Positions 3,732 to 43,176 of a stretch of DNA of 64,000 nt are shown here, piece by piece. Every line of letters begins with the position of its first letter. Position 1 is the stretch's first letter. The stretch lies in the NCBI GenBank assembly GCA_000004985.1, contig GG738882.1. The stretch is one strand, 5' to 3'. The DNA is from Naegleria gruberi. Its lineage: Eukaryota. The notes under the pieces were generated by a model. The model ran no database searches, had not been told where the DNA came from, and was given only the letters and a program-made list of their open reading frames with translations. A program made the translations under genes and the position numbers.

Positions 3732-6186
3732 TTATATTGAACTATTGGAAGAAGAAGAGGAAGATATGCTGATGGAAATATCCACTGGTGTGACTGGGAA
3801 ATTATCAGAATCTTCAGTAGGTTCTTCATATTGGAGCATGAATCTAACAAATGTGTCCTTCAAGATCATATTGGTTACAACCTTTTGAAGATCATCCAGC
3901 AAGTCAACTTGGCCAAAACCTTCGATAATTCTTTTAACTATGACTTCTCGTTCCTGCTTTGAAATATTCAAAGGGGTAGGTGAGTCTTCCTTCAAATATT
4001 GGGCAATAATTTCATTTTGCTTTTTAGATCTTTCCGAGGTTCTCTTGATATTCTTATACTTGAGCACATCTTCCAAAAAGTTGAAATTCTCAGCAGAAAA
4101 TTCACTTTCACAGAATTGCTTAATGAAAAGCTTGTTAAATAATTCAAGAATAACTTACTCTAAATAATTCCTTTGAACTCTTTTTTGACATTATCTTTTC
4201 AAATTCGAAAGATTGAATGGTTTCCTGTTGCTGTTTGATACTGGCCATTAATTCATGTTGCTCTTTCATATTTCTTGCAACAATTACATAGACTTCAATC
4301 ATTTCTTCATTCTGAATGATGGTTACTCTGGTAGATGATAATGAAACAGGAAGTTTGTTACCAAGGGCTGTAGACAATAATGCATCCTTTCTCGAATTGG
4401 TATTATACGAAAGAGATTCAAATAAGCCAAGAAATTGATCCGTCTCAGCAGCAAGATCACTAACAAGTAAATAATTTGAAATTGCCAAGGTATTCTTCTT
4501 GAGAATTTTCGTTTCAAATATAGTATTGAAGGTGGCAATTTCTCCATTTTTACAATCCACAGTAAAGATGAAATCAGAGATGGCATTCATGATTACTCTT
4601 GCATGCTGTTCAGAAAGGGATGTTTTCTCTAGTAACTCTTGAATTCTTTCATTCTCAGATACAATGACTGTTTGGGATTCGTCCAATGTTTCCAACATGT
4701 TATTAACATCATCAGTCAATAATCCCAGCTCATCCTTACCCATACACTTGACTCTCTTTTTGAAATTATTGCTAATGGTGATTTCTCTAACTGATTTGGC
4801 AAAATTCATCACTCTCTTAATAACAACAACCTCCAAAAAGACCATTATTGCAAATGAGAGCAGTAAAATCATTGCTGTCATTACTGCCCAAGTAATGATG
4901 AAAGAATTGGTTCCCAAAACAAATACTCTTCTTGCAAAGTCTGTTCTAATGATAATACTGTCATTTCGTGAAATGTCATAATATTTCTGAAATGTTGCCA
5001 TTCTAGATCCATAAGCATTTCCATCATCTTCAATATCTGCACAATATCTATTCTCGGTTATAGGATAAAGATTATTTTGTTGATCAACAAAAAGTGGTTG
5101 ATTGAGCTGAGCCATATTGTCTTTCCATTTTGTTACTGAACTTGAACCATTGATTAGTGTTGTTTTCCAATCCCCAACTCTTTCAGTTAAATAAGTATTG
5201 ATCCATTCGTGATTTTGTTTGAAAATGTATGAGCTGCTCTCTGGAGCACTTTCTCCACTAAGAGCAATTGCTAACAAATACCTATGTCTCCAATATTCCA
5301 TATTAAAGAGGGTAATACAGAGTTGAACTCTATTTGCCATATCTTGCTTGTACTCTGCAAGATCAAATCTAGCAAACACAATCAGGCCATATGTTTTTGT
5401 ATTGTAATCATAATTATCCTGTATTGGCATGCCACTCATAAGAATAATATATGAAAGCAGCTCTGTTTCTGTCATGTTGGCCATTATAGCTTGCTTCTTT
5501 TCATATGAGTTCACTAAATTTGGTAAATCTTTAAATGGAGAGAAGAAGCCGACATGTCTTGTTGAAGGTACATCAACATTCCTCAATAAACGAGCTCCTA
5601 GTTCATTTCTCGACAAATCATTGAACTCTTCTGGTAGATTATCCAAACTTATTCCCCTAAAACATGCTCTAAAAGCGAGCAAAGTTCCATCCTTCTTATA
5701 TAATATTGCAAAATTCAATTTGGAAGCCAGTTGATAATTACAATTCAAATAAGTATCCATATATTTCTCAGTAAATGATGAGTTTGTAGCCATAACAGCA
5801 TCAACAGTATCATTAAATGCTCCATATTCGCTAAGCTTTGATGTCAATGACTGAAAATCATCAAAATAGGCCCTTGTAGTTCTCTTTGCAGCTTCTACAG
5901 AATAAGTCTGCTCAACCGAATTAAACGAAAGTAAAAAGGCAGTCACCAACACAGCCAAACAAATAGCCATCAATAACAGAAATAACACTCCAAGCACTGT
6001 CATTGTTTTAAATCTAATACTACTCAATAAAACAACATCTCTCCTATTGGATTTTAAATTCAAAGTAGATGGTGGTCTCAACTTGACAATTCGAGGACCT
6101 GTTTCCTTAGATCGTTTCATATGATATTCTCTGTAGGCTTTGTCATCTTGCCAGGGAGACTCTGAAGGAGATTGTGATTGATACAT
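3732..6186 (-). CDS. receptor-like protein: cytoplasmic N-terminus, TM, ~370-aa extracytoplasmic sensor domain, TM, HAMP-like linker, PAS-like region, C-terminal RGS domain; 2 exons (~4159..6186, ~3732..4118)
   Basis: TM1 is TMTVLGVLFLLLMAICLAVLVTAFLL. A large N-glycosylation-site-rich ectodomain follows. TM2 is FIITWAVMTAMILLLSFAIMVFLEVVVI. The HAMP signature is KRVKCMGKDELGLLTDDVNNMLETL (DE-G-L...N-M..L). The RGS domain starts with QFCESEFSAENFNFLEDVLKYK and ends with DTFVRFMLQYEE. A 40-nt intron (GTAAGT...CATTAAG) joins ELFR to QFCESEF. No HisKA or HATPase motifs are present. Confidence 0.75.
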
Positions 6187-6787
6187 TTTCTTTAATTATT
6201 ATGTAATTTACTATCTCGCTTGCTGATGGCATCGGAAAACATCAAACTCTATCATTTCGAATGTACACTTGTTTCATGATTAATACAATTCAATATAAAC
6301 AACAATATTTGTACAATATTAATATTAATATTGATGAAATTCTGTTTGTTTTCATCAATTAATTAAATTCTCAGAGAACATTTTTTTTCTAATTTTCAAA
6401 TCAAATCACCTCTGATCTATTTAAATACTATGTGATTATTGCTATTGTATCAATTCAAAGTCTCTAATAAGAGAAAGCTCACCTTAGAGGGAATTTTAAA
6501 TTTTTATATTTTTTTCAAATTTAAAAAAAAGATCATCACGAGAAAATTCTTCAAACCTTTTTGATTGTTTTTGGTTTTCTACAAAGCTCAAAATTGGATT
6601 CATCATCAGAGTATAATTGCTATTGGGCGAGAATATATTTTATGCTTGGTTGTGTGATTTATTGGTAAAATTCATCATCCCGAACATTAAAATAGAACGT
6701 TGAAAATTATAAATATAATAACATCAATCATCACGATAATAATATCTATTTAAAAAGTACGACAATAATATCAACAAAAATCAAAGA

Positions 6788-8386
6788 ATGGACCACGGAA
6801 TTGTTCTTAATTTTGAACAGGAAAGAGAGCAATTGGAATCGTCTTTTGGATCCTTTCGTCCAAAGCGTTATCATACTCTCCGAAAGGAATTGAAACTGCA
6901 AAGTAGAAGCAAACGTAAACCTAATACACCATCATCTGAATTTTCCATGAAAAAACAATCAACCTACTTGGAGTGGAGAAAGTTTTTATTAGAACAAAAA
7001 GGGCAAACTTTTGCTTTTGTACAACATAATCCTTCTATGAAATTATCACCACAAGATACCCTGATGGTATTTGAAGCAAAGAAACAACAAGATCAAATGA
7101 AACCACCACAGTTTTTATTCCTCTCGGGTGGAACGACAAATCTTGGAGATAAGAAACATAAGAGAACACAAAGTAATAGACTCTCAGATGGTGGATCTTC
7201 CTATCAGGATCACTTGGATTCTTCTCAAATTTTAAATACAGGAGACGATACTGGATCAGAGGATAATGTAGATACTGCCGACACTATTAGTCAAACTGCT
7301 CCACGAACTAAATTATCTGAAGTTTATGAATTTGTCGGAATGCACCACATTTTCGAAGTCGGAAATGGATATGACGGAGTGGAAGTCACTTCAATCAAGT
7401 TTGCCAATGATAATAATGATTTGTTAGCTTTTGGTGCAACAGATGGTTGCATTTATATTGCTACAGCATGGAAAAAACCAGAAATTATACACAAATTGAA
7501 AGGGCACAAGGATGCCATCCTAGATTTTGACTGGTCACTGAGTAACGAGTACATTCTCAGTGTTTCTAAAGATTCAACAATTAGAATATGGAACACCACT
7601 ACTGGTGCTTGTATTAGAATTCTTGATAAGCAGGGAACGGTTAGGGCAGTGAAATTCTTCCCAAGAAATCCAAACTTTTTCTGTGTAGGTTTTGAAGGAG
7701 GACTTGTTGGTTTATACAATCTGAGTACTGGTAAATTAGTGGAAAAACTCAAAATTAACAAATTATCGATGGGAATGGGTAGTTTTGTCAATATTAACAT
7801 GTCACTAGGAGGAAGTAATCATGTTACTTCTGTTTTTTTCTCTACACAGGGAGATCAAATATTTATTGGAGATGTGACTGGTTTCTTGTGGATTTATGAG
7901 TTTGATATTAACAAACTCTGTTTTGGTAAATTAGTACAGAAAATTAAGGTATCACTCAATGGAAAAGCCATCACTTCTATTGATTATCAATTGTGGACTG
8001 GAAATTCTTCTAAAGTTAATCCTAGACTCTTGGTGAGTGCTATGGATAGTTATGTTCACCTCTTCCAATATAGCCAAACATCTGCAAAATTTGTAGAATC
8101 GATAAGATTCCCAGTCTCTCAAAAGAATCACAGTGTAAAGAGTCACTTTTGTCCTCTTGTTTCATTCATGGCCAGTTCATGCTTTGTGACAGGAAGTGAA
8201 TCGACGGAAATTCTTTTCTATTCTACCAAGTTTGGAGCTTCAAATGCAATTAACAGATTAATGGGTCACGCCTCTCCAGTTCTGGACGTCTCGTGGTCAT
8301 ATGATGAAACATTATTGGCCAGTTGTGACATGTCTGGTGTGGTAATACTTTGGAAGAGAAGACCTTTGGAAGATAAGGATGTATAA
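6788..8386 (+). CDS. WD40-repeat protein (532 aa, single exon)
   Basis: Start codon is ATG. WD40 units include LLAFGATDGCIYIATAW, KGHKDAILDFDWSLSNEYILSVSKDSTIRIWN, HASPVLDVSWSYDETLLASCDMSGVVILWK. The N-terminus is basic and S-rich low complexity. Confidence 0.8.
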   Translation: MDHGIVLNFEQEREQLESSFGSFRPKRYHTLRKELKLQSRSKRKPNTPSSEFSMKKQSTYLEWRKFLLEQKGQTFAFVQHNPSMKLSPQDTLMVFEAKKQQDQMKPPQFLFLSGGTTNLGDKKHKRTQSNRLSDGGSSYQDHLDSSQILNTGDDTGSEDNVDTADTISQTAPRTKLSEVYEFVGMHHIFEVGNGYDGVEVTSIKFANDNNDLLAFGATDGCIYIATAWKKPEIIHKLKGHKDAILDFDWSLSNEYILSVSKDSTIRIWNTTTGACIRILDKQGTVRAVKFFPRNPNFFCVGFEGGLVGLYNLSTGKLVEKLKINKLSMGMGSFVNINMSLGGSNHVTSVFFSTQGDQIFIGDVTGFLWIYEFDINKLCFGKLVQKIKVSLNGKAITSIDYQLWTGNSSKVNPRLLVSAMDSYVHLFQYSQTSAKFVESIRFPVSQKNHSVKSHFCPLVSFMASSCFVTGSESTEILFYSTKFGASNAINRLMGHASPVLDVSWSYDETLLASCDMSGVVILWKRRPLEDKDV

Positions 8387-8522
8387 ATTGTTAAATAAAT
8401 TTAAATTGAATTCTACTCTGATTCAAAAACTAAAACTAGATTCAAGACCTTGGAATAAATTAATGTTCATTTTGTTATGTTTTAAACCTTGGAATAAATT
8501 AATTTTTATTTACATTCACTAA

Positions 8523-11148: not shown

Positions 11149-11455
11149 TTTTTTAAAGTTTTTTTTATTTTTTTTAACGTTCGCAAAATTTGTTCTGATG
11201 AGAGAAGTGATGGAAACATTTATGGAAAATTGAACAATCTGGAAGGTGATGTTGTTATGGAAGTATAGTTGTTGGAAGAGGACTGGAAGATATTTGATAT
11301 TTTGAATGGCTCTAAACAGTTTTTGTTGAACGATTGTTTTGCTTGTTGTTGTCCAGATGATAATCTATTCACTTTAAATGGAATACGATTTTTAATAAGT
11401 TAGTATAGGTTCAATGGTTGTTGTACATTTTCAAAAAGGGATAATATCTCAATAT

Positions 11456-12444: not shown

Positions 12445-12870
12445 TTTTTAATTGTTGTTTTGATTAATGGAAGTTCACTGTTTTGCTGATTCTGAAAAGC
12501 CACTTTACTGAGAATTGGGTGAGAATTCCATGAATTATTGTCCATTGTTATGTCGCTAAATATAGCTTGACTACAGTAGTTGCACCTTCCGAAAGTTGGG
12601 AATTATCAAATGAGAAAGGATAATAAGGAAGGATTGAGGATAATTTGATGGAGTAATTCAATTTGTGCAACATTTCTTAATCATCACTTGAAACCTGGTT
12701 TTTTTGCTGGTTAACAACTGCAAAACAAACCTTGTTACATGTTCAAACATTATTAGAAGTATGTACAATATTCAATATACAAGGTGAACTTGATGATTTG
12801 TTTCTCAACACAAAATCCTTTTCCGAAGCTAAAAATAAAACATCGGTTACCTTTTTAAACCATGTTGTAA

Positions 12871-13617
<747 letters not shown>

Positions 13618-14154: not shown

Positions 14155-14919
14155 TCAATTCATTTCTCTTGCTTCCTTTCTAATTATTTCACTTTCATTC
14201 TTTAATAATTCTCCTACAAATTCAAGTGAAGATTCATCTTTTTTAACAGCTTGTAAAACTATTTCTCTGTCGTTTCTTAAATTTTCAGAAGCATACTGAA
14301 GTGCTGATCCATGTTGTTTGACAGCTGTCAAGACAATTTCTCTATCATTTTGAAGTTCTTCTGAAGCATTCTTAAGAGTATCACCATGTTGTTTTACAGA
14401 TGTCAATACAATTTCTCTGTCGTTTGTTAATTCTTTTGAAGCAAAGTGAATTTCATATCCATGATGTTGGACAGCTGTCAACATTATTTCTCTGTCATTT
14501 CTCAATTCCTCAGATGCATATTGAACTGCATATCCATCCCGTCTTATAGCTGTCAAGATAATCTCTCTATCATTTCTCAATGCATGATCAGTGACAAATT
14601 TAAGTGCATGAGCATGTGATTTGACAGCATGTAGAACTATCTCTCTATCACTTTTAAACTGTTCAGGAAGAAATTTGAGTGAAAGTCCTTCGTTCTTGAC
14701 AATTGCCAATGCTACTTCTCTATCGTTACGTAATTCCTCAGAGGCACTTTCAAGTACTCTATATCCGCAGACTTCAGCAATCCTTTTGACAACTGGCTTG
14801 TAGTTCCATAATTTTAACCTATCGGCAGTCTCTACCAATTGCTCCTCGTCATCACATTGTAAAAGATTTTGAATTATATCATCGTTGGTGGTGTCAATTT
14901 CTGTCTCTTGTCTATTCAT
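14155..14919 (-). CDS. DUF4116-like repeat protein (254 aa), about seven tandem ~27-aa repeats
   Basis: The recurring unit is LRNDREIVLTAVKQHGxALQYASEEL (also ELRNDREVALAIVKNEGLSLKFLPEQFKSDREIVLHAVKSHAHALKFVTDHALRNDREIIL...). This 'NDREIVL.AVKQ.G.AL.YASEEL' periodicity is characteristic of the DUF4116 repeat family. Confidence 0.65.
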   Translation of the reverse strand: MNRQETEIDTTNDDIIQNLLQCDDEEQLVETADRLKLWNYKPVVKRIAEVCGYRVLESASEELRNDREVALAIVKNEGLSLKFLPEQFKSDREIVLHAVKSHAHALKFVTDHALRNDREIILTAIRRDGYAVQYASEELRNDREIMLTAVQHHGYEIHFASKELTNDREIVLTSVKQHGDTLKNASEELQNDREIVLTAVKQHGSALQYASENLRNDREIVLQAVKKDESSLEFVGELLKNESEIIRKEAREMN

Positions 14920-15464: not shown

Positions 15465-17228
15465 TTATTTCCTTGACAAATTATTTGCTGATTTTCCGTT
15501 TTGATTTCCATTATTATTAGCTGCCTTCTTTTCTCTTTCCTTAATAACCTTGTCAATCTTCATCTTTCTCTGGAATTGAACACCAAGTTTAAATCTTTGT
15601 AAAGTATCCAACATGACAACTGCAATTTCATTTTGTAAAGGTTCAAATAAATCATCAGGAAGTTGATCATTCATTTTCTTATCTGGATTGGTGACTAATT
15701 GATCAGAGTCAACTGAAAAGAGTGTGAATTCTTGTAAAAGAGCTTCAACTTGATCGGCAAATCTCTTACTCACATTCACTGAGTTTTTACCATCCAATCT
15801 CAAAAAGTCAACCAAAATTTCATTAGCCAATTCAAATCTCTTATTACAAACAATCTTGTACTCCTCCTCAGTGACATTCTTAATCTTTTTCTTCTTTTTG
15901 AGTGATGACTTGTTATCAGTATCATTAAATGAAAGAGCTGGATTAGTTTGAGTCTTTTTCTGAGAATTATGAGTGGTGGTACTGTGACTTCCACTGGTAA
16001 TTGAGTTTTGTTTCGTTTGATTATCACCAGAGGACACACTCGAGATGGCATCAGTGTCATTTCCAGAAGTGACACTCTTGGCAGCTCCATGATCATCTGT
16101 TTCACTTGTAGAGCTAGTGTCTGTAAAGAGAATATCTTGCATTTCCCAAATTTGTCTCGAATATTCACGATACAAATTAGTTCTAATCAAAACTTCATAA
16201 TTTTCCAATGATAATTCTTGTTTACAATGTTGCTTGAATAAATCTCTCAATTTTGGATCATTCATCACATCTAAAAGCATGACAGCTTTGGCCTTCTTTA
16301 ATCTTTCTCTATTCAAAGCTTCCTTATTAAGAGCTGCCACGAATAGGAAAATCATGACAGGTAGCACAATAATAAATGCAATTATTGTCACTGAAGAAAT
16401 GATAATTGTATAAATTCCCATCCAATTATCTTCAGTATCTGACAAGTAAGATGACATGTCTTCAATGATGGCAATCTTTTTTTCAAACATTTCTTTTAAA
16501 CCTTCATATTCTTCTCCTTCAATAATTGCAATAGCTGTCCCAGTTGAGTTGACATCAATAATCTGTTTCTCCAAAATTTTCAGTTTCGAATGAGCATCCA
16601 TTAGTTCACTAATCACAACATTTTTATCATAATCATGATTAGCAAAATCCTCTACAGGAATAATATTAAAAATCTCATTCAGCATACTATCAATCCAATC
16701 CTGATGTGCCTCTAAATGATTATCCAAATTATTATTCGAATGAGCACTTTGATTATTCAAAAGTTTCGTCAAGCCATCACTCGGATGCACAATAAACGAA
16801 TCCTGATCGAAAATACTCCTATCACTCATATTCAAATAAGCCTTCAAATGCAACCCACTCGTAATCAACTGCTGAATAACCAACACATCTTTCGTCGTCT
16901 TGTATACGAAATTATCCACCTGCGAACGTAATACGAAAGTTTGTGGAAAGATCACTACCAACGCAACCAACAATAACACACTCACCACAATCCCACAAAC
17001 TGACAATAACTTGACCATTGAAATTCGATAGGATTTTTTCTTCTTCATTAGAAAACAACAACAACATGAAGGAAGGACGAGATAGAAACCACGACCATTT
17101 CGACCACTTTTAGAATTGTCGTTGTTGGTTGTGGAAGAGTTGGCTGTTCCTCCTTGAACAGTGTGTTTTTCTTTGGGAAGGGAGAGGAATTGGTGAGAGG
17201 TGTCAGCTGTTGGTAATTGATTTGACAT
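15465..17228 (-). CDS. receptor-like protein: TM - ~230-aa extracytoplasmic domain - TM - split RGS domain (587 aa, single exon)
   Basis: TM1 is LLSVCGIVVSVLLLVALVVIF. TM2 is IYTIIISSVTIIAFIIVLPVMIFLFVAAL. The RGS N-terminal box is LRDLFKQHCKQELSLENYEVLIRTNLY. An S/T/N-rich insertion of ~90 aa follows. The RGS core is FELANEILVDFLRLDGKNSVNVSKRFADQVEALLQ and the C-terminal box is LQNEIAVVMLDTLQRFKLGVQF. Confidence 0.75.
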   Translation of the reverse strand: MSNQLPTADTSHQFLSLPKEKHTVQGGTANSSTTNNDNSKSGRNGRGFYLVLPSCCCCFLMKKKKSYRISMVKLLSVCGIVVSVLLLVALVVIFPQTFVLRSQVDNFVYKTTKDVLVIQQLITSGLHLKAYLNMSDRSIFDQDSFIVHPSDGLTKLLNNQSAHSNNNLDNHLEAHQDWIDSMLNEIFNIIPVEDFANHDYDKNVVISELMDAHSKLKILEKQIIDVNSTGTAIAIIEGEEYEGLKEMFEKKIAIIEDMSSYLSDTEDNWMGIYTIIISSVTIIAFIIVLPVMIFLFVAALNKEALNRERLKKAKAVMLLDVMNDPKLRDLFKQHCKQELSLENYEVLIRTNLYREYSRQIWEMQDILFTDTSSTSETDDHGAAKSVTSGNDTDAISSVSSGDNQTKQNSITSGSHSTTTHNSQKKTQTNPALSFNDTDNKSSLKKKKKIKNVTEEEYKIVCNKRFELANEILVDFLRLDGKNSVNVSKRFADQVEALLQEFTLFSVDSDQLVTNPDKKMNDQLPDDLFEPLQNEIAVVMLDTLQRFKLGVQFQRKMKIDKVIKEREKKAANNNGNQNGKSANNLSRK

Positions 17229-17683: not shown

Positions 17684-18664
17684 ATGACTTTAAACCACAC
17701 CACCACCTCATCCTCGTCACACGTATTACCAACAGAAACAACGACCGTTCGCTTCTCATTATTAAATAGTAACAGCAAAAAGTTTAACCTCGTTGATTCG
17801 AATATTTATAAAAAGAAACCTAACGGTTGTGGATGTGCTTTATGTTCATTCTTTATGAATGATTTTCCAGAGAGTTTAAATGCCGAAGATTATGAACCTT
17901 CACGTGTTGAGCAAGTAGCAAACATTGTGACACATGGCATTCCATTAATTATACTTTCGTATATTTTCTACTTGACCTCACATGTTGTAAATACGAAATT
18001 AGAGATGATTTCATCTGTTCTGTATTGTTCGAGTCTTTTCATTCTATTATCCATATCGACATTGTATCATGTCATGTGTTTAATTCATGGAAAACAATCA
18101 AGTAAGACCTATTGGTTTCGAATAATTGATTATGCAACAATTTACATATTCATTGCTGCATCCTATACACCATACTTGCTCGTAGTTGGTATTGGCCATG
18201 AAAACTTTTATGGAAAATTGATGGCTGCATTTATTTGGTTATTGGCAATATGTGGCTTGGTAAAATCATTTTCAGAAGGAAGATTGCTGGCATTTATTAA
18301 TAATAATGCATTATTTAACTTGATGGGATGGGCAGCTCTACTTGCCATGCCAACCTCAATGTTTATTCATGTTCCCTTGGAGGCATTCTTGACCTTACTA
18401 TTTGGAGGAATATTCTTCTCTGGTGGAGTTTATTTTCTAAAAAAGGATGGAGTCATTCCATTTGCTCATGCAATTTGGCATATATTGTCTGTGTGTGGAT
18501 TCTTGATGCATTTCTTTTCAATTTATTATTACATCTTTCAATTGGATGGATTGTTCGTTCCACATGGAGTTTACAATTCAAAAATGGCGTATGAGCAAAT
18601 TATTGAAACACTTACTGGGCAGAGAATGCCATTTGGTCATTTGCGTGTATCCCCAATACACTAA
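17684..18664 (+). CDS. PAQR / hemolysin-III family 7-TM protein (326 aa)
   Basis: Family motifs are present in the canonical order. ANIVTHGIP matches NxxTHxxG. STLYHV matches SxxYH. IDYATIYIFIAASYTPY matches D.xxI..IAGSYTP. HAIWHILSV matches HxxWHxxV. Confidence 0.8.
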   Translation: MTLNHTTTSSSSHVLPTETTTVRFSLLNSNSKKFNLVDSNIYKKKPNGCGCALCSFFMNDFPESLNAEDYEPSRVEQVANIVTHGIPLIILSYIFYLTSHVVNTKLEMISSVLYCSSLFILLSISTLYHVMCLIHGKQSSKTYWFRIIDYATIYIFIAASYTPYLLVVGIGHENFYGKLMAAFIWLLAICGLVKSFSEGRLLAFINNNALFNLMGWAALLAMPTSMFIHVPLEAFLTLLFGGIFFSGGVYFLKKDGVIPFAHAIWHILSVCGFLMHFFSIYYYIFQLDGLFVPHGVYNSKMAYEQIIETLTGQRMPFGHLRVSPIH

Positions 18665-24814: not shown

Positions 24815-26257
24815 TCAAACATTATTTCCCTCAATTCCTTCCTTAACCTCCGAATGATGCACAACTTTTCCCTTCTCACTTTCTGCCACTTTCTTCCTAC
24901 CTTTCTTCCCAACTTTCTCCTTCAAATTCGAAGGAGTCTTGAACAACCTCTGAACCTCTCTCAACGGTGAAATCAACACCAATTGAATAATCAAAAATCC
25001 CAAAATTGCAATATTCGAAAAGCAATGATAAAACAACAATGAAAATTGCCATCCAGTTGCTCCAGGTAGAAATGCCAATCCCAATAATTGGATGAAAAAG
25101 CAAATTGTTAATCCAATTTGAAGTCCAAGAGATTTTCGAAGTGCCTTCTTTTTGAGTTGATAAGTATTGTCGATTTCTTGGTTTGTCTTGTTGACAGATT
25201 TGGAAAATGACTTGTCAATAACATGTGAAGTGAGGGATTGGTCTTTTTTAGTTGGGGATTGGATGCTGTTGGCGTCTGGAATGGGAGTGGTTGGGGTGAT
25301 GTCAATGTTTTGATGTTTGCTGTCATGTGAAGAAGCACTTTTGACATTGTCACTTGTGCTTGTCAAATCTTCGAGTTCATAAGGTTGAGCAGTTGAGGAA
25401 CCACCCTCTTCCAAGTGATGTGTCGTTCTCTTCATCATTTCTCTAATTTTCTTCTTACTTGCTTTGAGAGCTCTGTATAATCTGAAACCATAAGTCTATT
25501 CGAAATTATTCGAAAAGTTACAATGAAGAAATTCAACAATTACTTACATTCATAAAGATTGCAGTGGCTACCATTCCCATAAACATAATAACCATTGGAG
25601 TGATAAAGATTACGATGGATAATTGCTGTTGACTAATTGGTGAAATTCCACTTCCTCTCAAACCATGTAAAACTGCAATAACTAAAATGTGACCAAGAAA
25701 GAATAACACAAAAAAGATGATTAGGAGAGAGATGAGAAGGTATTTGGATGCTTTGAATTCCTTTTCGGTTATATAGTTGGTCAAACGAGTAGTTTTTAAA
25801 CTAGACGAAAATGAATCGAATAAAAATTTGTGAAAACTTACAAGACAAATCCAATAAAACCCATGATTAAAATTTGATTATACAACAAGACTGCACTCAT
25901 TGATCTATCAATACCCTTAATTACATTATTCAAGTCAAATGCCACTCTATAAATCGGATTAAGAAATGACAATTCACTTGACAATCTCGTGACATTTTGA
26001 AAGAATGAAAAGAAAGCCAAAGCAATATTCATCCAATACAAGATGTGCTGATTCCGTTTCAATTGTCGAAATTGAATAATATAATACACCAACAGAACAA
26101 CAAAGAAAATTAAAAAAATAAAAATTGGACCTCCGTCAATTCCTGCCACTAATTGACTGTACAAGTCAAATGAGAAGGAGGTTGCGTTCTGTGACTGGGT
26201 TTGTTGGATTACATATGCATCTTGAAGAAAATCATCTCCAATATTTCTGAATGTCAT
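24815..26257 (-). CDS. seven-transmembrane orphan membrane protein (~450 aa); exons ~25842..26257, ~25548..25800, ~24815..25495
   Basis: There are seven hydrophobic helices: IFIFLIFFVVLLVYYII, ILYWMNIALAFFSFF, VLLYNQILIMGFIGFV, YLLISLLIIFFVLFFLGHILVIAVL, LSIVIFITPMVIMFMGMVATAIFM, LGLQIGLTICFFIQLLGLAFL, FSLLFYHCFSNIAILGFLIIQLVLI. A ~130-aa hydrophilic loop separates TM5 and TM6. The introns are 41 and 52 nt (GTAAGT donors). The junctions give GFV|F|LKTTR and FMN|TYGFRLYRALK. Confidence 0.55.
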
Positions 26258-32382: not shown

Positions 32383-34320
32383 GTGGGAAGCATTCCTTCA
32401 ACACCAAGAACAACATTAGCTTCTACTACCAATCAAGTTGCTCATCCGAATGTTGTTGTCTCCTCCTCACCATCAATTCATCATCAACCAATGACAAGTC
32501 AATCGACGACGAATTATTACCATACCGATCATGCACAGTATCATTCATTCAGTAATGAAGTTGGAGTTTCGTCTGCCCTTCCTCCCAAGATGCAACAAAA
32601 GAAGAGACATAACACAACTGCCTCGACAAGTTCTTCCTCATCCTCCTCTTCTAATGAGCATACCACCATATTGGAAATTGCTAGTGGTGAAGCTTTGTCA
32701 TCAACAACTAATGGTATAACACCTGCGACTCCAATTCCAGTCCGACAATATCAGCAACCAACAATTCAACCAATTCTCACAATGAATTCCAACACCATTC
32801 AACCACATCAACAGCAGCAGCAACATGGATACTTTATGAATGGATCCACTCAATCATCATTTGATAATACTCAAATGCAATCTCATCAAGGACACGTCAT
32901 GATAATGATGGACGATGATAAGGGAGAAGCAAAGAAGAGAAAGAGAAGAAATCAAGCCAAATCAGCTTGTGAGCAATGTAGAAGAGCTCACACTGCCTGT
33001 ACTGATCAAAAACCTTGTCTCAGATGTGTCAAGTTAGGATTGCAATGTGTTGAAGCTCCTAAAAAGAAACAAAAACCAAATGGTAAAAGCTCATCTGGCA
33101 ATAACAGTCCTCCTCCAACAAATGTTAATAATACATACAGTACAGATACATCTCCTTATGGTAGTGATTTGAGCAGTTTAGCCACCAGAATTCAAAACAT
33201 TCCCAATATGAATCCAATTGCAAGTGAGCAACATCAACATGAATCAGTAATGAATTCAGCAGGAAAGAGCTCTTCAAGTTCTTCCTCTTCTGATGGTGAC
33301 TACTCTTCTGGAACAACCAACAGTCCAACTCAACAAACAACCTCCTATCCTCCTCAAGTTCCTACCATCCAAACTCCACAACCTTCCTTTGCAATTAATA
33401 GATTAACACCTCTCTCAGTTTCTCAATTCCAAACCTTAATTAAGGAAGGCAATGTAGAAAAGGTGCACCAAGTTTGTGAAATTTCCTATCAACTCATTAC
33501 TATGAGTGTGGATGAAATCAAGACTATCTATCCAGTGCTCGTTCCAGCTGGACAAGAACAGTTAACCTTCAATACCAACAGAAATGGGTTCTTATTGGCC
33601 TATTTGTATGGTAAATTCAATATTATGAACGCCATGAGAGATATTTTGTGGAAGCAATACAGATCAGAATACTTTAGTTTCCTTTTCAAGTTAATTTCAT
33701 TTGATGATGATAAGGCACTCATTAGAATGTATCTTCAAGGTATTCAATATGATTTGAATACTGTTGAAAATGAAAAGAGTATTGGTCTGTTGAGTTTCTG
33801 TGCCTGTTGTGGAAGAATTGAAATTTTCAAATTGCTCTGTGAAGAATTCCAATGCTCCCTTTTCCAAGTGAGAAATGAAAAGTATTTACCAATACACTTT
33901 GCCTGTAGTTACTCAAATGTAGAAATTGCAGAATACATCCTCCAAAAGTATCCAATCCAATTGGATATTCAAGTTAACAATAATAGTTCTCCACTATTGG
34001 TTTCAGCAGCATATGGCAGTCTCAAAAGTATCAAATTTTTAATTGATCGAGGAGCCAATGTAAATTTATGTGACATTGATGGTCTGTATGCTATTCACTA
34101 TGCCGTCAAGTACAATCACTTTGCTGTTGTCCAATATCTAGCTCAACATAATGCTGATTTTTCTGTCAAGAATAACTCTGGTCAAACAATATTTGACTTC
34201 GCGACAGATTCAGACAAGAAGTTTATGCTAGAACTAATTGTACAAAACAAAAACCTTAATGATAGAATTTTATTACAGGAGGATATAATCAAAAACATGA
34301 AACCAACATCATGTAAATAA
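32383..34320 (+). CDS. Zn(II)2Cys6 (GAL4-type) DNA-binding protein with C-terminal ankyrin repeats (645 aa)
   Basis: The binuclear cluster is KSACEQCRRAHTACTDQKPCLRCVKLGLQCVE (C-x2-C-x6-C-x6-C-x2-C-x6-C). Ankyrin units include LLSFCACCGRIEIFKLLCEE...LPIHFACSYSNVEIAEYIL...SPLLVSAAYGSLKSIKFLIDRGANVNLCDIDGLYAIHYAVKYNHFAVVQYLAQHNADFSVKNNSGQT. The N-terminus is S/T/Q-rich. The start codon appears to be GTG in the track, and the first in-frame ATG (MTSQST) lies ~35 codons downstream. Confidence 0.75.
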   Translation: MGSIPSTPRTTLASTTNQVAHPNVVVSSSPSIHHQPMTSQSTTNYYHTDHAQYHSFSNEVGVSSALPPKMQQKKRHNTTASTSSSSSSSSNEHTTILEIASGEALSSTTNGITPATPIPVRQYQQPTIQPILTMNSNTIQPHQQQQQHGYFMNGSTQSSFDNTQMQSHQGHVMIMMDDDKGEAKKRKRRNQAKSACEQCRRAHTACTDQKPCLRCVKLGLQCVEAPKKKQKPNGKSSSGNNSPPPTNVNNTYSTDTSPYGSDLSSLATRIQNIPNMNPIASEQHQHESVMNSAGKSSSSSSSSDGDYSSGTTNSPTQQTTSYPPQVPTIQTPQPSFAINRLTPLSVSQFQTLIKEGNVEKVHQVCEISYQLITMSVDEIKTIYPVLVPAGQEQLTFNTNRNGFLLAYLYGKFNIMNAMRDILWKQYRSEYFSFLFKLISFDDDKALIRMYLQGIQYDLNTVENEKSIGLLSFCACCGRIEIFKLLCEEFQCSLFQVRNEKYLPIHFACSYSNVEIAEYILQKYPIQLDIQVNNNSSPLLVSAAYGSLKSIKFLIDRGANVNLCDIDGLYAIHYAVKYNHFAVVQYLAQHNADFSVKNNSGQTIFDFATDSDKKFMLELIVQNKNLNDRILLQEDIIKNMKPTSCK

Positions 34321-34544
34321 ATATTCCTCAATTTTTTATTTTCAAATTCATATTTTACAAAACATTATCTTTGAATTTTCACACCCAACCAGCCAACTGG
34401 AAGATTTTTTGAAAGAGTATCCAATATTCCTCCAATTGCATCTCTATTTCACTCAACAACAGCAAACTCGAAATCTTGTTTTTCCTTATTCATCCACCAA
34501 CTCCGATTCCTATTTAAAAAGATTTTTTAATTTTTTTTAAAAAA

Positions 34545-36614: not shown

Positions 36615-36630
36615 AGAAGTGTTATTGTTT

Positions 36631-39600
36631 TTATTCCAAATTGGCTTGCTTCATCAACTTATTCTTGTAGTTAACAATTCCTTGATAAGTTTCGAATTGT
36701 TGAGTGAAGATAAATCTAGAAAAGGTGTCACTCAAATTGAAAAGAACTTGATTTTGGAGAGTTTCAATTGATTTTCTGATTGACTCTTTCAATTCTTGTG
36801 AAATTTGATTCTTTTTGCCAAAATTCTTTCCATTTTCCAATTCAATATCTTTAGTTTTAGAATCTGTAGAGTCCAGGTCCTGTACAAGATTAACGAATGA
36901 TTTCTTACAATCTGATGGGATGTTAACTTCCTTCAAAGAACCGTTCTTGACATAGGTTTCATAAATATGCAGAATAATTGTTTGAGCTTGGTGAGAATCG
37001 TCCAAGTTTTCAAAAACATTATTCTGATTTTTGATTTCCAAATAAAGTTGTAAATTTTCAAGGGAATACTCCTTTTCGCAGAACCATTCGAACAATTGCA
37101 AACCCTCAGCATGTTCTAATAATTTCACTAACTCTTCTCCTTCATCTTGTTTAGTTTCGTATGAGCTCTTTCTAATCTTGTGAATAAATAGCACAATTAA
37201 AGAATAACCTCCAAATACAAACAAGTAACTGAACAAGTAGAGAATGTCAAAAAGTAATGAAATAGAATCATTCAATAGTAACATTTTCAAAGAGTCTGTC
37301 TTTCGATAAGTCAATCCTGATAGGCCAATAATTTGTGAAATAACCAAAAAGGTAAAACACATTACAAACAAACACATCTCAGCTCTGAAATATAATGGAG
37401 AATCCAATCTAATAATATTTTCATAAACCCCTTTCAGTGGAATCTTTACAAGTTTCTTTGCAGTTGTAAAATTATCGAATTTCTGCAGTTTTTCCAAACT
37501 TTTACCAGTAAGTAAATCATTCAAAGAGAAATTGAGCTTCCTTGTTTCATTATCTGTTGTTTGTTCTTGACCTTGTTTGATAATTTCGTTTTCCTTTCTC
37601 TTGGAGAGGAAGACCATAATCCAATCCAATGCAATCATACAACAAATAATGAATCCTAGAAGGAGAATCGAACAAGTAAACGAAATGGAAACAATATGAG
37701 TATACGTAGTGCCTGTAATGGCTCCAGTACGAATGAGAATAACCCACAGAGTCCAATACAATACATTCAATGTTACAAATACTGACATTACAATAAGCAT
37801 TACCTTGGTTGAAAGGAATAGTTTTGTAACCTTGAGAAGTGTTTCACTCTTTGGTTCTTTAGAATTAAACCTCAACCATATTTGATGATGAAAATATTTC
37901 AATACTTGGAATCTTAAAACTTGATACAAGTAGGAAAAGATTGCAGTGAGTGTAATGGTGTTTACAATAATTGTAAAAATATTCGAAATGATATTAGCAG
38001 CCAAATCTCCATTTTGTAATTGAAGAACTGTAGATTGACTATTTTCAAAATCATTTTGATTTCCAAGAACACTATTAGCATATCTCAGTAGAATACCTCT
38101 CTGAGTTATAAGTAAAAGTGCACATTCAATGATAAGAGCTGCCATTCCAATAAAAGGAGTTACAAATCTGCTAGTGACAGGTTGAGATTTTCTGAAAACA
38201 ATCAACAGTACTAAAGTAATCGATGATAGAATCAAGAATAAAGAGCCGAATGAAATTTGAGCAATGTAGAGTGAAGAAACTTGTTTAAGGAATTCTGCAT
38301 TTGTTGGAGTTTCTTGTTCTACAAATGCTGCAAAGAGAGTTGTGTGATTACATTGACAAGTTAATTGCTTGGTTTGATTGTTGAAATAATAAACTGAACA
38401 TCCTTCTCTTTCCCATTTGTGATTTGTTTCGTTCCAAAATTGGCAGCTTAATGAAGTGTTAGAAACTGAAGAGTTTGTTTCTAATGTAAAGCTAATGTAG
38501 ATTGGTTCAATTAAGTTGGACAATGATAACGGAGAACCAGATTTGTATAATGTGAATTCTTTTGAATTAGTCAATTGTGTTGAATTACCATTTGTGTACA
38601 AATTCTCATCAAAGGTTATGAGAGCCAATCCAATTTCCTTATAGTATCCATCGTATTTGGCAAGAATATAATCTGTATCTATTGTAACTCCATTAAATTC
38701 CTGAACAACATTGTCAATAGATGAAGTTTTCAAAAAAGTGGAAGTTGTAATGTTGATCAAGTCGGATATGTATGAATTCTGATCGAGAGATCCTGAAAAT
38801 ACTCTTGATGCTTGTTGGTTAATAATAATGGAAGATAATTGGGAACAAAGAGTTGTCACATTAACAAATCCGTTCAATAAAATATTGCTGGCAGATGACA
38901 AGGTATTTTTCAAATCGCTTTCTGACATTCTTTGTTTAGAGAGATAACCATTGGAAGACTTATCACTTTTGATTATTTCATTTACCGAGCCCAAGAAATT
39001 CTCCAATTTGGAACTAAGGATAGAAGCTACTTTGTTTTCTAATGAATTTGTTGTTGTCAACTGGTTAATAACTTCCAAAGTAAGTGAAGGATTTTCAACA
39101 TGGAGGTTAAGACTGTTCACATATTCGTATATTATTTCATTTGATTGTTTTCTTGATTGATCGTATGGAAGGATAACCGACAATCTCTCATCGTGTCTTA
39201 TTCTATACTGTAAGGTTTCTGCATCTTCAGAGTTGAGAAGAACTTGGACTGAACCAAAATATTTTGAATATTGATTGGAGAGACTGTCTCTTGCAATGAC
39301 ATATATTTGAACAGTGGCAGACTCAGTTTTGTTATTAGACAAATAAGGAAGGTAGCATGAACAAGTAAGATTCTTTGAAAACTCATTCATTCGAATAACA
39401 ATGTTTTCCCCATGTACATTCGAATATTCAAAACCAAATGCAAACTCTAACGGGGAAAGCTCGTATGGTACAATCCAGTTGTTCAAATCTTCTTCAAAGT
39501 TGAAAAGCGTTGAAAGGGCCATTCCTGTTTGAGGTAAAATATTAACATTAGAATGTAATCTTTCAGGAGGAGACAATATTGGAATGCTTTCTAAAAATTC

Positions 39601-42600
39601 AACTGTTTCAGAGAGATTTTGAGAATTATAAAATTTCACACTCAGTGTCAAGTTTCCTTGACCGTTATTATGAAAACTTCCTTTTAGAGAAAGAACTGGA
39701 CTAAACGAAAGTTTGTACAAACCATTAGTAGATCTTCCAATAAAACTGGCAAGTATATACTCTGGTGGTTGCGAATAAATTTTTTGATTTCCATCACTAA
39801 TCTGCCATGAATATTTCAAATTCGTCCAAGTACAATTTGTACAATTATTAGAAAGTCTAATGGATTCAAAATCATTAATATATTCTAAATATGCACCAAT
39901 GATGTTCATATCTATAACTTGGTTCAATCCTTTGACAACAGCTTTTGGTTTACCAATTATTTCTATTAATCTCTTTTCCTTTACAATTTTTTCCTTACAA
40001 TTCGCTCCAAAATAATCTGGTTTACAAGCACACGTGTTAGGATAAATGCAACTACCTTGTCCTGAACAAACTAAAGATGAATTTGTATAAATCACTCCAA
40101 AGCAATGGAAGAGGTCACAATTAATTCCAGTAAATCCTTCATTACATATACAGGTATCGGTGATATTGCAGTTTCCATGCCCAGAACAAACATTAGAATT
40201 ATTGAAAAGGACTCCATTACAATAAAATGTTTCACAATCCAATCCATCATATCCAATCTTACATGTACAGGAATTAGGAGAAGTACAAGTGCCAAATCCA
40301 GAACAAACACTTGTAGAATTATGCAATTGAGCATTACAATAAAAAGTCTCACAATTATCCCCGAAATAACCATCCTTACATTGACAAATATTTGGCAAAG
40401 TGCAATTTCCGTTTCCTGAACAAACCATTGAAGAATTGTGATTCACATTATTGCAGGAATAGTTTTCACATTCGTTTCCGCTATATCCAGAACTACAGAT
40501 GCAATTATTAGGAGAAGAGCAATAGCCATGTGATGAGCATACTTTGGAGGAATTATTCAATAGACCACTACAATTATAACTTTCACAATTATTACCAAAA
40601 TATCCATTCAAACAAGAGCAATTGTTTGGAGCAGTACAGTTTCCATTTCTAGAACAAACATCTGTGGAATTGTGCATCTTGTCACCACAAAAGTACGTTT
40701 CACAATTATTTCCATAATATCCTGTTTGACATGAAGAACAAATATTTGGAGATTGACATACTCCTCGTCCACTACAAACCTTTGTTGAATTGTTTTGAAT
40801 TCCAAAACAATCCCATACACTGCAATCTGATGAATAGTAGTTAGAAGAGCAAGAGCATTGATTTCCAGCAATACATACACCATGCCCTGAACAAACATTA
40901 GTTGAGTTGGTTGCATTAATTCCAAAACAAATTGGAACCTGACATAACGCACCTGTATATAGTGGAGAACACTGACAGTTGTCTATTCCTACACACGTAC
41001 CATGTCCAGAACAAACAATTGATGAGTTAGATAAGATTCCATTACATTTAGGATATTGACATCTCTCTCCTCCATATCCATTAACACATGAACACTGATT
41101 TACACCAATACATGTCCCTTTACCACTACAAACGTTAGATTCCCCTTGAAGAATACCATAACATTTGGGTTTCTCACAGTTTACGCCTCCCCACGAGCTG
41201 CTATCAGTGCATTGGCAAGTGTTAGGAGACTGACATGTACCTCTGCTATTACAAACAGTTCCATCTGTAGAAATAATGTTATTACATTTTGGAAATTGAC
41301 ATAGGTTACCTCCCCAATTATTTTGATCGTTACAATTGCAATTTTCAATGGAACTACATATTCCTCTTGAGTTACAAACAAGCGGATCACCCTTAAAATA
41401 AGATCCACATTTAGGATTTTCACAAAATTGACCTGAATAATTTGGATCGCAAATACAAACATTTGGGGCCGTACAGACACCATTTCTATTACAAACATTT
41501 GCGTCGCTGGCTGCTATACTATTACATTTTGGAAATTGGCAGAAGACTCCAGTATAATTTGTATTGCATGCACATGAACCCACACCAACACATGTTCCAT
41601 TTGCACTACAAACTTTGGGATCAGTTGACAGTATGTTGTCACACTTTGGATATTGACAATCTGATCCTCCCCAATTGTTTGGTACATTACATGTGCAAGA
41701 ATCTGGTGCTGAGCAAACACCTCTACTATTACATACACCAGCATTACCTTGTAAAACTCCATTACATTTTGGTTTTTCACAATTTTGACCTCCCCATGCT
41801 GCTGGACTTGTACACTGACACGAGTCAACTGCTGAACAAAGACCTCTTCCATTACAAACATTGGATTCTCCCTGAAGAATTCCAGAACATTTTGGTTTTT
41901 CACAATTAGCTCCTCCCCAACTTGTTGGTTCATCACATTGGCACTGATTGTTTCCAATACATTTGCCTCTACCTGAGCAAACTGTTGCAAAGTTAATACT
42001 CTCAATACCATTACAAAAGCTTGTAAAACACTGTGTGCCATTACTGTTCAGGTTGTAACCATTATCGCAAGTTGGCATTAAAACACGAATCTTATTCGTA
42101 CCTCTCTCTGCAAATATAATTTGTCCAGTAGTTTCATTCACAAACAAACCAGCAGGAAGTGAAAGAGGACTCAAATGTGAAATTGACCCATCATCTGCAA
42201 GGGCTTGTATTCCATTACCAGCAATGGTTGAAATGATTCCATTCTTCACTCTTCTAATTCTATTGTTTTCGTGATCTGATATATAAATTACTTCATCTTG
42301 AGTAACATAGACAAATACTGGATCTTGCAGCATGGAAGATTTTGCAGCAACATTATCTGGTCCAAATCCTAAGGTTCCATTTCCTGCAACAGTTGAAATC
42401 TTTCCGTCTGGTTGAATCATTCTTATTCGATGATTCTTCTTATCGACAATGTAGATCTTATCATTTCTAACGAAAACACCATGGGGTTCATTTAACTGAG
42501 CTGTACTTGCTTGAATTCCATCTCCATTATAATTAGCCGTTCCAGTACCTGCAATAGTGGTAACAGTTCCTGACTCGACCTTTTTAACTTTGTGATTATA

Positions 42601-43176
42601 AAAGTCAGCAATATAATATAAGCCAGTGTAAGGTACAAAGATAGCTGGTGGATGGTCTAGTTGAGTTACTCCTGTGGCTCCTATAGCATCTCCACAACCA
42701 GGAACCCCAACACTTGTTGCAATGATATTAGAACTCACCATACGAATTTTACAGTTATATTGATCTGCAATATAAATGATATTGTCCATAACAAAGACAC
42801 CATATGGATAGTATAGTTTGGCAGAGGTAGCTAACTGTCCATCTCCTGTAGAACCTTGTTGACCAACCTTGCCAGCAATAATGGTAACATCACCATTAGC
42901 ACTTCTTTTCTGGACAATATTATTGTACTGATCCACAAAGTAAATCTCATTGTTGTACATGTGCAGGCCACCAGGTTTTTGTAAATTACTAACGAGAGTT
43001 TGGATTGTATATTTGATAGGCGATTCGGCTTGTTTAGAATATCCACCCCACAAGAACAAAATCACCAGAACAATTATTGGCAGGCATCTGTTTGGAAGAG
43101 GTGTCATACTATTTTTTTTGTTGAGATTCGTTTTGTTTATGCACTTCACCACTTGGACTGTTAAGTCCATTCTCAT
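36631..43176 (-). CDS. adhesion-GPCR-like giant protein (2181 aa, single exon): signal/anchor, NHL repeats, ~20 EGF-like Cys repeats, spacer, GPS-like motif, 7TM, C-terminal RGS domain
   Basis: The NHL repeats (~plus 42070..43000) include YFVDQYNNIVQKR, IYIADQYNCKIRMV, YYIADFYNHKVKKV, IYIVDKKNHRIRMI, IYISDHENNRIRRV. The EGF-like units (~40150..42070) follow the pattern PKC.G.L.....VC.SRG.C..P..C.C....W.G..C. The GPS-like motif (~38330..38450) is CQFWNETNHKWEREGCSVYYFNNQTKQLTCQCNHTTLFAAF. Seven helices lie at ~37180..38290. The RGS domain (~36690..37130) starts with LQLFEWFCEKEYSLENLQLYLEI and ends with LSDTFSRFIFTQQFETY. Confidence 0.8.
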   Translation of the reverse strand: MRMDLTVQVVKCINKTNLNKKNSMTPLPNRCLPIIVLVILFLWGGYSKQAESPIKYTIQTLVSNLQKPGGLHMYNNEIYFVDQYNNIVQKRSANGDVTIIAGKVGQQGSTGDGQLATSAKLYYPYGVFVMDNIIYIADQYNCKIRMVSSNIIATSVGVPGCGDAIGATGVTQLDHPPAIFVPYTGLYYIADFYNHKVKKVESGTVTTIAGTGTANYNGDGIQASTAQLNEPHGVFVRNDKIYIVDKKNHRIRMIQPDGKISTVAGNGTLGFGPDNVAAKSSMLQDPVFVYVTQDEVIYISDHENNRIRRVKNGIISTIAGNGIQALADDGSISHLSPLSLPAGLFVNETTGQIIFAERGTNKIRVLMPTCDNGYNLNSNGTQCFTSFCNGIESINFATVCSGRGKCIGNNQCQCDEPTSWGGANCEKPKCSGILQGESNVCNGRGLCSAVDSCQCTSPAAWGGQNCEKPKCNGVLQGNAGVCNSRGVCSAPDSCTCNVPNNWGGSDCQYPKCDNILSTDPKVCSANGTCVGVGSCACNTNYTGVFCQFPKCNSIAASDANVCNRNGVCTAPNVCICDPNYSGQFCENPKCGSYFKGDPLVCNSRGICSSIENCNCNDQNNWGGNLCQFPKCNNIISTDGTVCNSRGTCQSPNTCQCTDSSSWGGVNCEKPKCYGILQGESNVCSGKGTCIGVNQCSCVNGYGGERCQYPKCNGILSNSSIVCSGHGTCVGIDNCQCSPLYTGALCQVPICFGINATNSTNVCSGHGVCIAGNQCSCSSNYYSSDCSVWDCFGIQNNSTKVCSGRGVCQSPNICSSCQTGYYGNNCETYFCGDKMHNSTDVCSRNGNCTAPNNCSCLNGYFGNNCESYNCSGLLNNSSKVCSSHGYCSSPNNCICSSGYSGNECENYSCNNVNHNSSMVCSGNGNCTLPNICQCKDGYFGDNCETFYCNAQLHNSTSVCSGFGTCTSPNSCTCKIGYDGLDCETFYCNGVLFNNSNVCSGHGNCNITDTCICNEGFTGINCDLFHCFGVIYTNSSLVCSGQGSCIYPNTCACKPDYFGANCKEKIVKEKRLIEIIGKPKAVVKGLNQVIDMNIIGAYLEYINDFESIRLSNNCTNCTWTNLKYSWQISDGNQKIYSQPPEYILASFIGRSTNGLYKLSFSPVLSLKGSFHNNGQGNLTLSVKFYNSQNLSETVEFLESIPILSPPERLHSNVNILPQTGMALSTLFNFEEDLNNWIVPYELSPLEFAFGFEYSNVHGENIVIRMNEFSKNLTCSCYLPYLSNNKTESATVQIYVIARDSLSNQYSKYFGSVQVLLNSEDAETLQYRIRHDERLSVILPYDQSRKQSNEIIYEYVNSLNLHVENPSLTLEVINQLTTTNSLENKVASILSSKLENFLGSVNEIIKSDKSSNGYLSKQRMSESDLKNTLSSASNILLNGFVNVTTLCSQLSSIIINQQASRVFSGSLDQNSYISDLINITTSTFLKTSSIDNVVQEFNGVTIDTDYILAKYDGYYKEIGLALITFDENLYTNGNSTQLTNSKEFTLYKSGSPLSLSNLIEPIYISFTLETNSSVSNTSLSCQFWNETNHKWEREGCSVYYFNNQTKQLTCQCNHTTLFAAFVEQETPTNAEFLKQVSSLYIAQISFGSLFLILSSITLVLLIVFRKSQPVTSRFVTPFIGMAALIIECALLLITQRGILLRYANSVLGNQNDFENSQSTVLQLQNGDLAANIISNIFTIIVNTITLTAIFSYLYQVLRFQVLKYFHHQIWLRFNSKEPKSETLLKVTKLFLSTKVMLIVMSVFVTLNVLYWTLWVILIRTGAITGTTYTHIVSISFTCSILLLGFIICCMIALDWIMVFLSKRKENEIIKQGQEQTTDNETRKLNFSLNDLLTGKSLEKLQKFDNFTTAKKLVKIPLKGVYENIIRLDSPLYFRAEMCLFVMCFTFLVISQIIGLSGLTYRKTDSLKMLLLNDSISLLFDILYLFSYLFVFGGYSLIVLFIHKIRKSSYETKQDEGEELVKLLEHAEGLQLFEWFCEKEYSLENLQLYLEIKNQNNVFENLDDSHQAQTIILHIYETYVKNGSLKEVNIPSDCKKSFVNLVQDLDSTDSKTKDIELENGKNFGKKNQISQELKESIRKSIETLQNQVLFNLSDTFSRFIFTQQFETYQGIVNYKNKLMKQANLE

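Follow-up and report, generated by a model that had tools for sequence, protein, structure and literature searches.

Near one end of a scaffold of Naegleria gruberi, three genes within 40 kb of one another each join a membrane sensor to a regulator of G-protein signalling (RGS) domain. Does this density reflect a local cluster, or is it what a genome rich in such genes yields by chance, and what kind of receptors do the genes encode? We analyzed 64,000 nucleotides of contig GG738882.1 (assembly GCA_000004985.1), hereafter the window. Here, we call the genes G1 (3732–6186), G2 (15465–17228), and G3 (36631–43176); they share one strand (minus) without being adjacent, as a first-pass annotation made from the sequence alone had reported. 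Both the expansion of RGS proteins and the wiring of receptors to GTPase-activating proteins (GAPs) are already published for Naegleria, and G1–G3 are uncharacterized members: 229 RGS proteins (PMC3971589) and 44 Gα subunits have been counted in N. gruberi, whose genome holds 15,727 genes in 41 Mb. We consider it probable that the three genes are old and divergent members of this very large RGS repertoire, that each encodes a membrane receptor-GAP, and that they co-occur by chance at a chromosome end.

Architecture of the three genes

G1 encodes 808 amino acids (aa) in two exons (4159–6186 and 3732–4130) separated by a 28-nt intron of the form GTAAGT...AG (4131–4158). The open reading frame (ORF) of 680 aa that carries the sensor (4144–6186) ends in ...KELFR, followed by GTAAGT, and excision of the intron fuses it in frame with the RGS ORF ending at 3732. 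Across the resulting junction, G1 aligns with its Willaertia magna homologue without a gap. In a metagenomic homologue (L001), the sensor ORF stops at the same position (...RFR/GTAAGT) and a separate RGS ORF follows. Neither the exact spliced G1 sequence nor the 2181-aa G3 sequence was present in the protein collection searched; therefore, the official gene models must differ. In addition, for the paralogue XP_002671054.1, 9 residues are missing from the official model precisely at the position that matches the G1 intron junction, which suggests that the splice site was mis-called there.

The order of elements in G1 is a first transmembrane helix (TM1, 5932–5988), a CHASE4-like ectodomain with a double-PAS/Cache-like fold (aa 86–437; 4876–5931), TM2 (4819–4875), HAMP (aa 463–502; 4681–4800), a cytoplasmic PAS domain (aa 539–639; 4270–4572), and RGS (aa 662–774; 3837–4203, spanning the intron). 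Pfam matches were read against the gathering cut-offs of 23.9 bits for RGS (PF00615), 26.2 for CHASE4 (PF05228), 25 for HAMP (PF00672), and 22.5 for GPS (PF01825). The G1 RGS domain scored 58 bits, and in a phmmer search of the PDB it matched RGS5, RGS4, and RGS2 at E ~1e-7. The two TM helices and the limits of the ectodomain were taken from hydropathy. The putative CHASE4 and HAMP domains, whose own scores fall below the cut-offs, were assigned from the matches of relatives and from predicted structure, and the PAS domain from a modelled beta-sheet module, Foldseek, and PAS matches in relatives. The HAMP candidate directly follows TM2.

An AlphaFold2 model of G1 built on the family alignment had a mean predicted local distance difference test score (pLDDT) of 83.6, with most of the ectodomain above 90. 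In this model, a long N-terminal helix is followed by two alpha/beta modules and a continuous TM2–HAMP helix; the HAMP region forms helix–connector–helix, its second helix leads into a signalling helix, after which comes a PAS module of five strands. This arrangement, PAS-like alpha/beta folds after a long N-terminal helix and between two TM helices, is that of a Cache-type fold. In fact, Foldseek comparison with the PDB matched the ectodomain to double-Cache (dCache) ectodomains (3lid/3lie, 2p7j, and 9kpj; probability 1.0), and full-length models of WalK and McpB/McpC were also matched. The cytoplasmic module matched FixL, LOV, and other PAS structures, again at probability 1.0. No prokaryotic output domain (HisKA plus HATPase, MCPsignal, or GGDEF/EAL) was found in G1 or among the domains counted for its 49 closest relatives. 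As modelled, G1 couples an entire sensor-and-relay unit of bacterial style to a eukaryotic RGS output.

G3 is a single ORF of 2181 aa with a signal-like N-terminus. Its ectodomain (38449–43035) contains NHL repeats, about 30 EGF-like repeats, and a Cys-poor stalk (Pfam NHL, EGF_2, EGF_TEN, and EGF_Teneurin), with 115 Cys and 38 N-glycosylation sequons in total. A GPS motif follows (aa 1577–1616, ...CQCNHT/TLFA; 38329–38448; 32.8 bits), and seven hydropathy peaks lie between it and the RGS domain. This seven-TM (7TM) region (aa 1643–1996; 37189–38250) has a third intracellular loop of 78 aa, and the RGS domain (aa 2017–2162; 36691–37128; 35.8 bits) starts about 20 residues past TM7. Because its seven TM helices lead to a C-terminal RGS domain in the cytoplasm, G3 fits the 7TM-RGS class, whereas G1 and G2, with two TM helices each, fall outside it. 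In its ectodomain and GPS motif, G3 resembles an adhesion G protein-coupled receptor (GPCR); it is not classed as one, because the membrane region matched no Pfam 7TM family, 7tm_2 included, at E values up to 1. A homologue from N. lovaniensis is 42% identical and carries both GPS and RGS.

Another gene with NHL-like and EGF repeats lies 10 kb from G3 (53477–57656, plus strand). It ends with one TM helix and a short tail, lacks 7TM and RGS regions, and is interrupted by an assembly gap. Over about 950 aa it is 36% identical to the G3 ectodomain, of which it looks like a single-pass relative. A recent duplication linking the two was considered and rejected on the basis of this protein identity and of DNA that is barely similar.

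G2 encodes 587 aa and is 100% identical to N. gruberi XP_002674826.1 (NAEGRDRAFT_70170; 381,539-bp scaffold). Two strong TM helices located by hydropathy (TM1, aa 75–93, 16950–17006; TM2, aa 282–300, 16329–16385) surround a Cys-free ectodomain of 188 aa (16386–16949), which appears helical. The RGS domain (aa 317–560; 15549–16280) begins about 17 residues past TM2 and is interrupted by an 89-aa low-complexity insert (15867–16133) rich in Ser, Thr, and Asn. The first-pass annotation had placed RGS directly downstream of the transmembrane hardware in all three genes. This holds for G2 (after TM2) and G3 (after the 7TM region), but in G1 the PAS domain stands between HAMP and RGS.

An alignment with the RGS4 box shows no variation among G1, G2, and G3 at the positions equivalent to RGS4 E83, S85, E87, N88, I114, N128, N158, D163, R167, and F168. 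In the complex of RGS4 with Giα1, S85, E87, N88, N128, D163, and R167 are switch contacts, and N128 is the most important for GAP action. Because these Gα contacts are kept, all three RGS domains look GAP-competent at the sequence level. The predicted topology is N-in with the loop outside for G1 and G2, and N-out/C-in for G3; it fits the positive residues before TM1, as well as the cysteines and N-glycosylation sequons that the predicted ectodomains contain. Identity among the three RGS domains is only about 26%, and the ectodomains differ; both bear out the earlier description of the genes as independent. Judged by this divergence, G1–G3 are not a recent local expansion; they are old and mutually divergent. 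No fourth RGS domain was found in the window by tblastn with the three RGS domains as queries.

The G1 family in Heterolobosea

We examined the distribution of the G1 sensor by an exhaustive HMMER search, using its ORF (exon 1) as the query. Relatives numbered 1615 at E ≤ 0.001, 110 at E ≤ 1e-10, and 22 at E ≤ 1e-30. Among the best 49, CHASE4 was matched in 35 (best E 2e-32), RGS in 32, HAMP in 31 (best E 5e-11), and PAS in 12, and the named G1 paralogues scored 35–47 bits against CHASE4. Additionally, of the 150 best cluster representatives, a local iterative search showed at least 41 to have a C-terminal RGS domain. All family members with a source organism name are heterolobosean, and the remainder come from environmental metagenomes.

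In N. gruberi itself, six or seven further G1 paralogues are recorded on contigs of other lengths (among them XP_002671054.1, XP_002669406.1, XP_002668928.1, XP_002670055.1, XP_002668985.1, and XP_002670222.1). The family also occurs in N. fowleri (XP_044563642.1), N. lovaniensis (XP_044549017.1), Willaertia magna (KAL9651711.1), and Acrasis kona (KAL0483449.1 and KAL0487670.1). These heterolobosean homologues are like G1 in their CHASE4-TM-HAMP-(PAS)-RGS order and are 27–47% identical over most of the sensor; they are uncharacterized and annotated merely as "predicted protein", "RGS domain-containing", or "HAMP domain-containing". L001 was considered as the orthologue of G1 and dropped: the paralogue XP_002671054.1 is slightly nearer (50% versus 45–47% identity), and the neighboring genes differ.

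Not all relatives end in RGS. Among the best 49 relatives, 4 (P0041 and three more) have a class-III cyclase domain: the same CHASE4-HAMP sensor is combined there with an HNOBA/guanylate-adenylate cyclase output in place of the RGS domain of G1, which points to a shared sensor chassis on which outputs are swapped in these amoebae.

We found no description of the CHASE4-HAMP-PAS-RGS family in the searchable full-text literature; Anantharaman et al. 2011 (Gene 475:63) or Bradford et al. 2013 (Sci Signal), the likeliest places for a catalogue of Naegleria RGS architectures, may mention it. In Naegleria, a survey of Cache-superfamily sensors reported just one Cache protein, a cyclase. A possibility that we take seriously, short of favoring it, is that G1 represents a Heterolobosea-wide receptor class new to the literature, in which a bacterial-type CHASE4/double-PAS-TM-HAMP-PAS module is wired to a eukaryotic RGS domain and a small-molecule cue would directly tune GTP hydrolysis by Gα. 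If so, the class would be a third route into G-protein signalling, beside GPCRs acting as guanine nucleotide exchange factors (GEFs) and 7TM-RGS proteins.

Since much is known of dCache/CHASE sensors and HAMP relays, and both lend themselves to chimeras, the family could also open to direct test the way in which RGS activity in receptor-GAPs responds to an extracellular signal.

Proposed receptor-GAP action, chance, and chromosome end

How might such receptors act? In the mechanism that we propose, Gα subunits would be partly self-activating, loading GTP spontaneously, and would be restrained by membrane RGS domains. Placed 15–25 residues past the final TM helix of G2 and G3 and, in G1, behind a HAMP–PAS relay, the membrane-held RGS domain would accelerate GTP hydrolysis on membrane-bound Gα, and events at the ectodomain would alter its GAP activity or its access to Gα. 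In G1, a small ligand at the double-PAS/CHASE4-like ectodomain may act through TM2, HAMP, and PAS on RGS; we propose this path because the same modules behave so in bacterial sensor kinases and chemoreceptors. The input to G3 would probably be adhesive or matrix contact, or mechanical, at the NHL/EGF/GPS ectodomain, as has been proposed for the GPS/EGF 7TM-RGS proteins of N. fowleri, and G2 would respond to some cue at its helical two-TM ectodomain. The sequences themselves show the domain architectures, the topology, and the kept Gα-contact residues; ligand regulation, GAP activity, and the Gα partners are what we infer for the three proteins. N. fowleri has 28 7TM-RGS proteins and 79 other RGS proteins, and several of the former carry GPS, EGF-like repeats, and lectin domains (Bosch, Jeck & Siderovski 2022, PMC9283941). 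RGS domains of these 7TM-RGS proteins are demonstrated GAPs on the self-activating Gα5 and Gα7 (PMC9283941).

The main alternative is that the RGS domains of G1–G3 are not ligand-regulated GAPs; they would instead be constitutive Gα anchors or scaffolds, or effector-type binding modules, regulated by trafficking or phosphorylation in the manner of AtRGS1 endocytosis. Some RGS domains have lost GAP activity and serve as scaffolds (PMC3971589, citing Anantharaman 2011), and AtRGS1 is regulated by endocytosis. The long low-complexity or loop inserts of G2 and G3 could likewise be phosphorylation targets, and the authors of the N. fowleri study leave the coupling of cue to GAP activity open (PMC9283941). 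However, the Gα-contact and catalytic-support residues, the Asn128 equivalent included, are kept in all three proteins; G1 has a complete predicted HAMP–PAS relay, and in bacterial receptors such a relay transmits conformational signals; and the 7TM-RGS domains of N. fowleri are active GAPs (PMC9283941). We regard this alternative as unlikely, although it survives best of those considered.

The first-pass annotation had counted about 27 genes in 40 kb and had taken the density of receptor–RGS fusions as a sign that the genome systematically uses ligand-regulated GAPs. We counted about 20 gene loci across 3.7–43.2 kb. The suggestion of receptor-linked GAPs beside GPCRs was correct, and already published for Naegleria, but the density itself is no evidence for it. 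We estimated chance from the published 229 RGS genes among 15,727 genes in 41 Mb: the probability of three or more RGS genes was 0.007 per 27-gene block and 0.0015 per 39.4 kb, so that 1.6–4 such blocks are expected genome-wide without any clustering. The block is locally enriched and unremarkable genome-wide. Chance alone should therefore yield a few such triplets in a genome with 229 RGS genes, and RGS gene number explains three genes in 40 kb better than local duplication or a functional cluster does. For genome organization, the triplet carries little weight, as it lies within chance and the receptor-GAP logic is already published.

The subtelomeric placement that the same annotation had raised is real. 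At the right end of the window lie two telomere-like (TTTGGG)n arrays (62561–64000, plus strand), one at 62561–62793 (39.5 copies) and the other at 63595–64000 (67.5 copies), with the G-rich strand of both oriented toward the window end. These arrays mark the window as a scaffold end and the apparent end of an N. gruberi chromosome. The first array is 19 kb beyond G3 and 56 kb from G1. Between the arrays are a 50-N gap (62795–62844) and about 750 bp of AT-rich unique sequence; another assembly gap spans 57807–61766. The pair could be an interstitial array followed by the true telomere, or two scaffolded telomeric reads. We found no paper stating the sequence of the Naegleria telomere repeat.

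Could the clustering nevertheless be real? Receptor–RGS genes might favor subtelomeres in Naegleria, with ectopic recombination speeding their diversification, as for surface-gene families in other protists. G1, G2, and G3 all lie within 60 kb of the telomere-like arrays, the probability of a triplet per block is low (0.0015–0.007), the NHL/EGF gene with 36% identity to the G3 ectodomain is 10 kb away, and the apparent lack of homologues of G2 fits fast evolution. Conversely, 1.6–4 such blocks are expected by chance, and RGS domains about 26% identical with unrelated ectodomains give no sign of recent local duplication. G1 and G3 have homologues of the same architecture, 42–47% identical, in other heteroloboseans, which marks both as old and conserved; in N. 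gruberi, the named paralogues of G1 are dispersed, being recorded on contigs of six other lengths; and the intervening genes are housekeeping-like. No feature of the window points to sped-up local diversification. On balance, we consider subtelomeric clustering improbable.

It is more improbable still that the G2 RGS domain is a false positive or a degenerate relic, which would leave only two receptor–RGS genes: the full-length protein scores 23.7 bits, just under the cut-off of 23.9, phmmer with this domain matched no RGS structure in the PDB, and a single-sequence AlphaFold2 model was unusable (pLDDT 40.8), but removal of the insert raises the score to 30.6 bits (E 4.7e-7; profile positions 4–100 of 117), an iterative search seeded with the G1 RGS domain recovers G2 at E 2.4e-11 (albeit in a small database), BLASTP against the G1 RGS domain gives E 5e-6, and all six RGS4 contact residues align. 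The RGS calls of the first-pass annotation thus pass validation by hidden Markov models, for G2 only in its insert-free form.

Several points weigh against chance co-occurrence of three old receptor-GAPs, the reading that we prefer. The low probability per block (0.002–0.007) leaves room for mild regional enrichment. The G1 scores for CHASE4 (22.6–23.1 bits) and HAMP (21.4–23.6 bits) are below their cut-offs of 26.2 and 25 bits. The RGS domain of G2 is divergent and holds a large insert, and no homologue of G2 was detectable in a word-indexed protein search. Finally, the authors of the N. fowleri study describe as undetermined how extracellular cues change GAP activity (PMC9283941).

Between G1, G2, and G3 lie genes of unrelated kinds: WD40, ABC transporter, phosphoribosyltransferase, polyubiquitin, DUF4116, PAQR, ADP-ribosylglycohydrolase, F-box, and Zn-cluster/ankyrin. 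No Gα motif was found in the 64-kb window, the GC content of which is about 33%. Introns are very short (28–52 nt) and of the GT..AG type, with a GTAAGT donor and an AG acceptor in each of the 28-, 41-, and 52-nt cases. The two longer of these belong to an orphan 7TM gene without RGS (24815–26257, minus strand), which encodes 449 aa in three exons (introns 25801–25841, 41 nt, and 25496–25547, 52 nt). This orphan, reported by the first-pass annotation, is real as a gene model; six of its hydropathy peaks are strong, the seventh segment is weaker and was judged by eye, and a long loop separates TM5 from TM6. The protein matched no Pfam family, and a relationship with the 7TM region of G3 was rejected, as BLAST found no similarity.

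A second 7TM gene without RGS, of the PAQR/HlyIII family (17684–18664, plus strand; Pfam 78.5 bits), is transcribed divergently from G2, with an intergenic region of 455 bp between them; the first-pass annotation had passed over it. At 14155–14919 (minus strand), a protein of 254 aa is little more than a run of seven DUF4116 repeats (359 bits). At 32383–34320 (plus strand), ankyrin repeats are fused to a fungal-type Zn(2)-Cys(6) binuclear cluster (Pfam Zn_clus, 30.6 bits), and a Q/N-rich gene at 43744–46768 (plus strand) has a Cys-rich motif (CLNCRK.../CTRCTTKGLNCEY) resembling a Zn(2)-Cys(6) cluster split across ORFs. To our knowledge, transcription factors with Zn(2)-Cys(6) clusters are unusual outside fungi and amoebozoans.

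Comparison with known systems

The sensor half of G1 shares its predicted module order and folds with bacterial CHASE4/dCache-TM-HAMP-PAS sensors, such as WalK-type histidine kinases, McpB, TlpA, the vpHK1S-Z8 ectodomain, and CHASE4 diguanylate cyclases. The likeness is on the input side only: the output of G1 is RGS, not a kinase, an MCP signalling domain, or GGDEF/EAL, and its gene has a spliceosomal intron and a eukaryotic nuclear location.

G3 can be set beside the metazoan adhesion GPCRs (family B2), with which it shares a long adhesive ectodomain, a GPS motif just before TM1 (~aa 1643), and seven TM helices. Unlike them, it has no 7tm_2 match, and its C-terminal RGS domain predicts the opposite action on Gα, as a GAP and not a GEF. 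The closer likeness is to the 7TM-RGS proteins of N. fowleri (Nf 7TM RGS1–4; PMC9283941), which have the same plan of a large EGF-repeat ectodomain, GPS, 7TM, and C-terminal RGS with canonical interface residues; in this comparison, made by described architecture, G3 has NHL repeats, whereas the N. fowleri examples have lectin domains. G3 is a clear counterpart of these adhesion-type proteins in N. gruberi, a laboratory model that is non-pathogenic.

For all three genes, the conceptual model is AtRGS1 of Arabidopsis, a 7TM-RGS receptor-GAP for the self-activating GPA1, in which a cytoplasmic C-terminal RGS domain acts as a GAP and not as a GEF. AtRGS1 has hardly any ectodomain, and its regulation is through glucose-induced phosphorylation and endocytosis; unlike it, G1 and G2 are not 7TM proteins.

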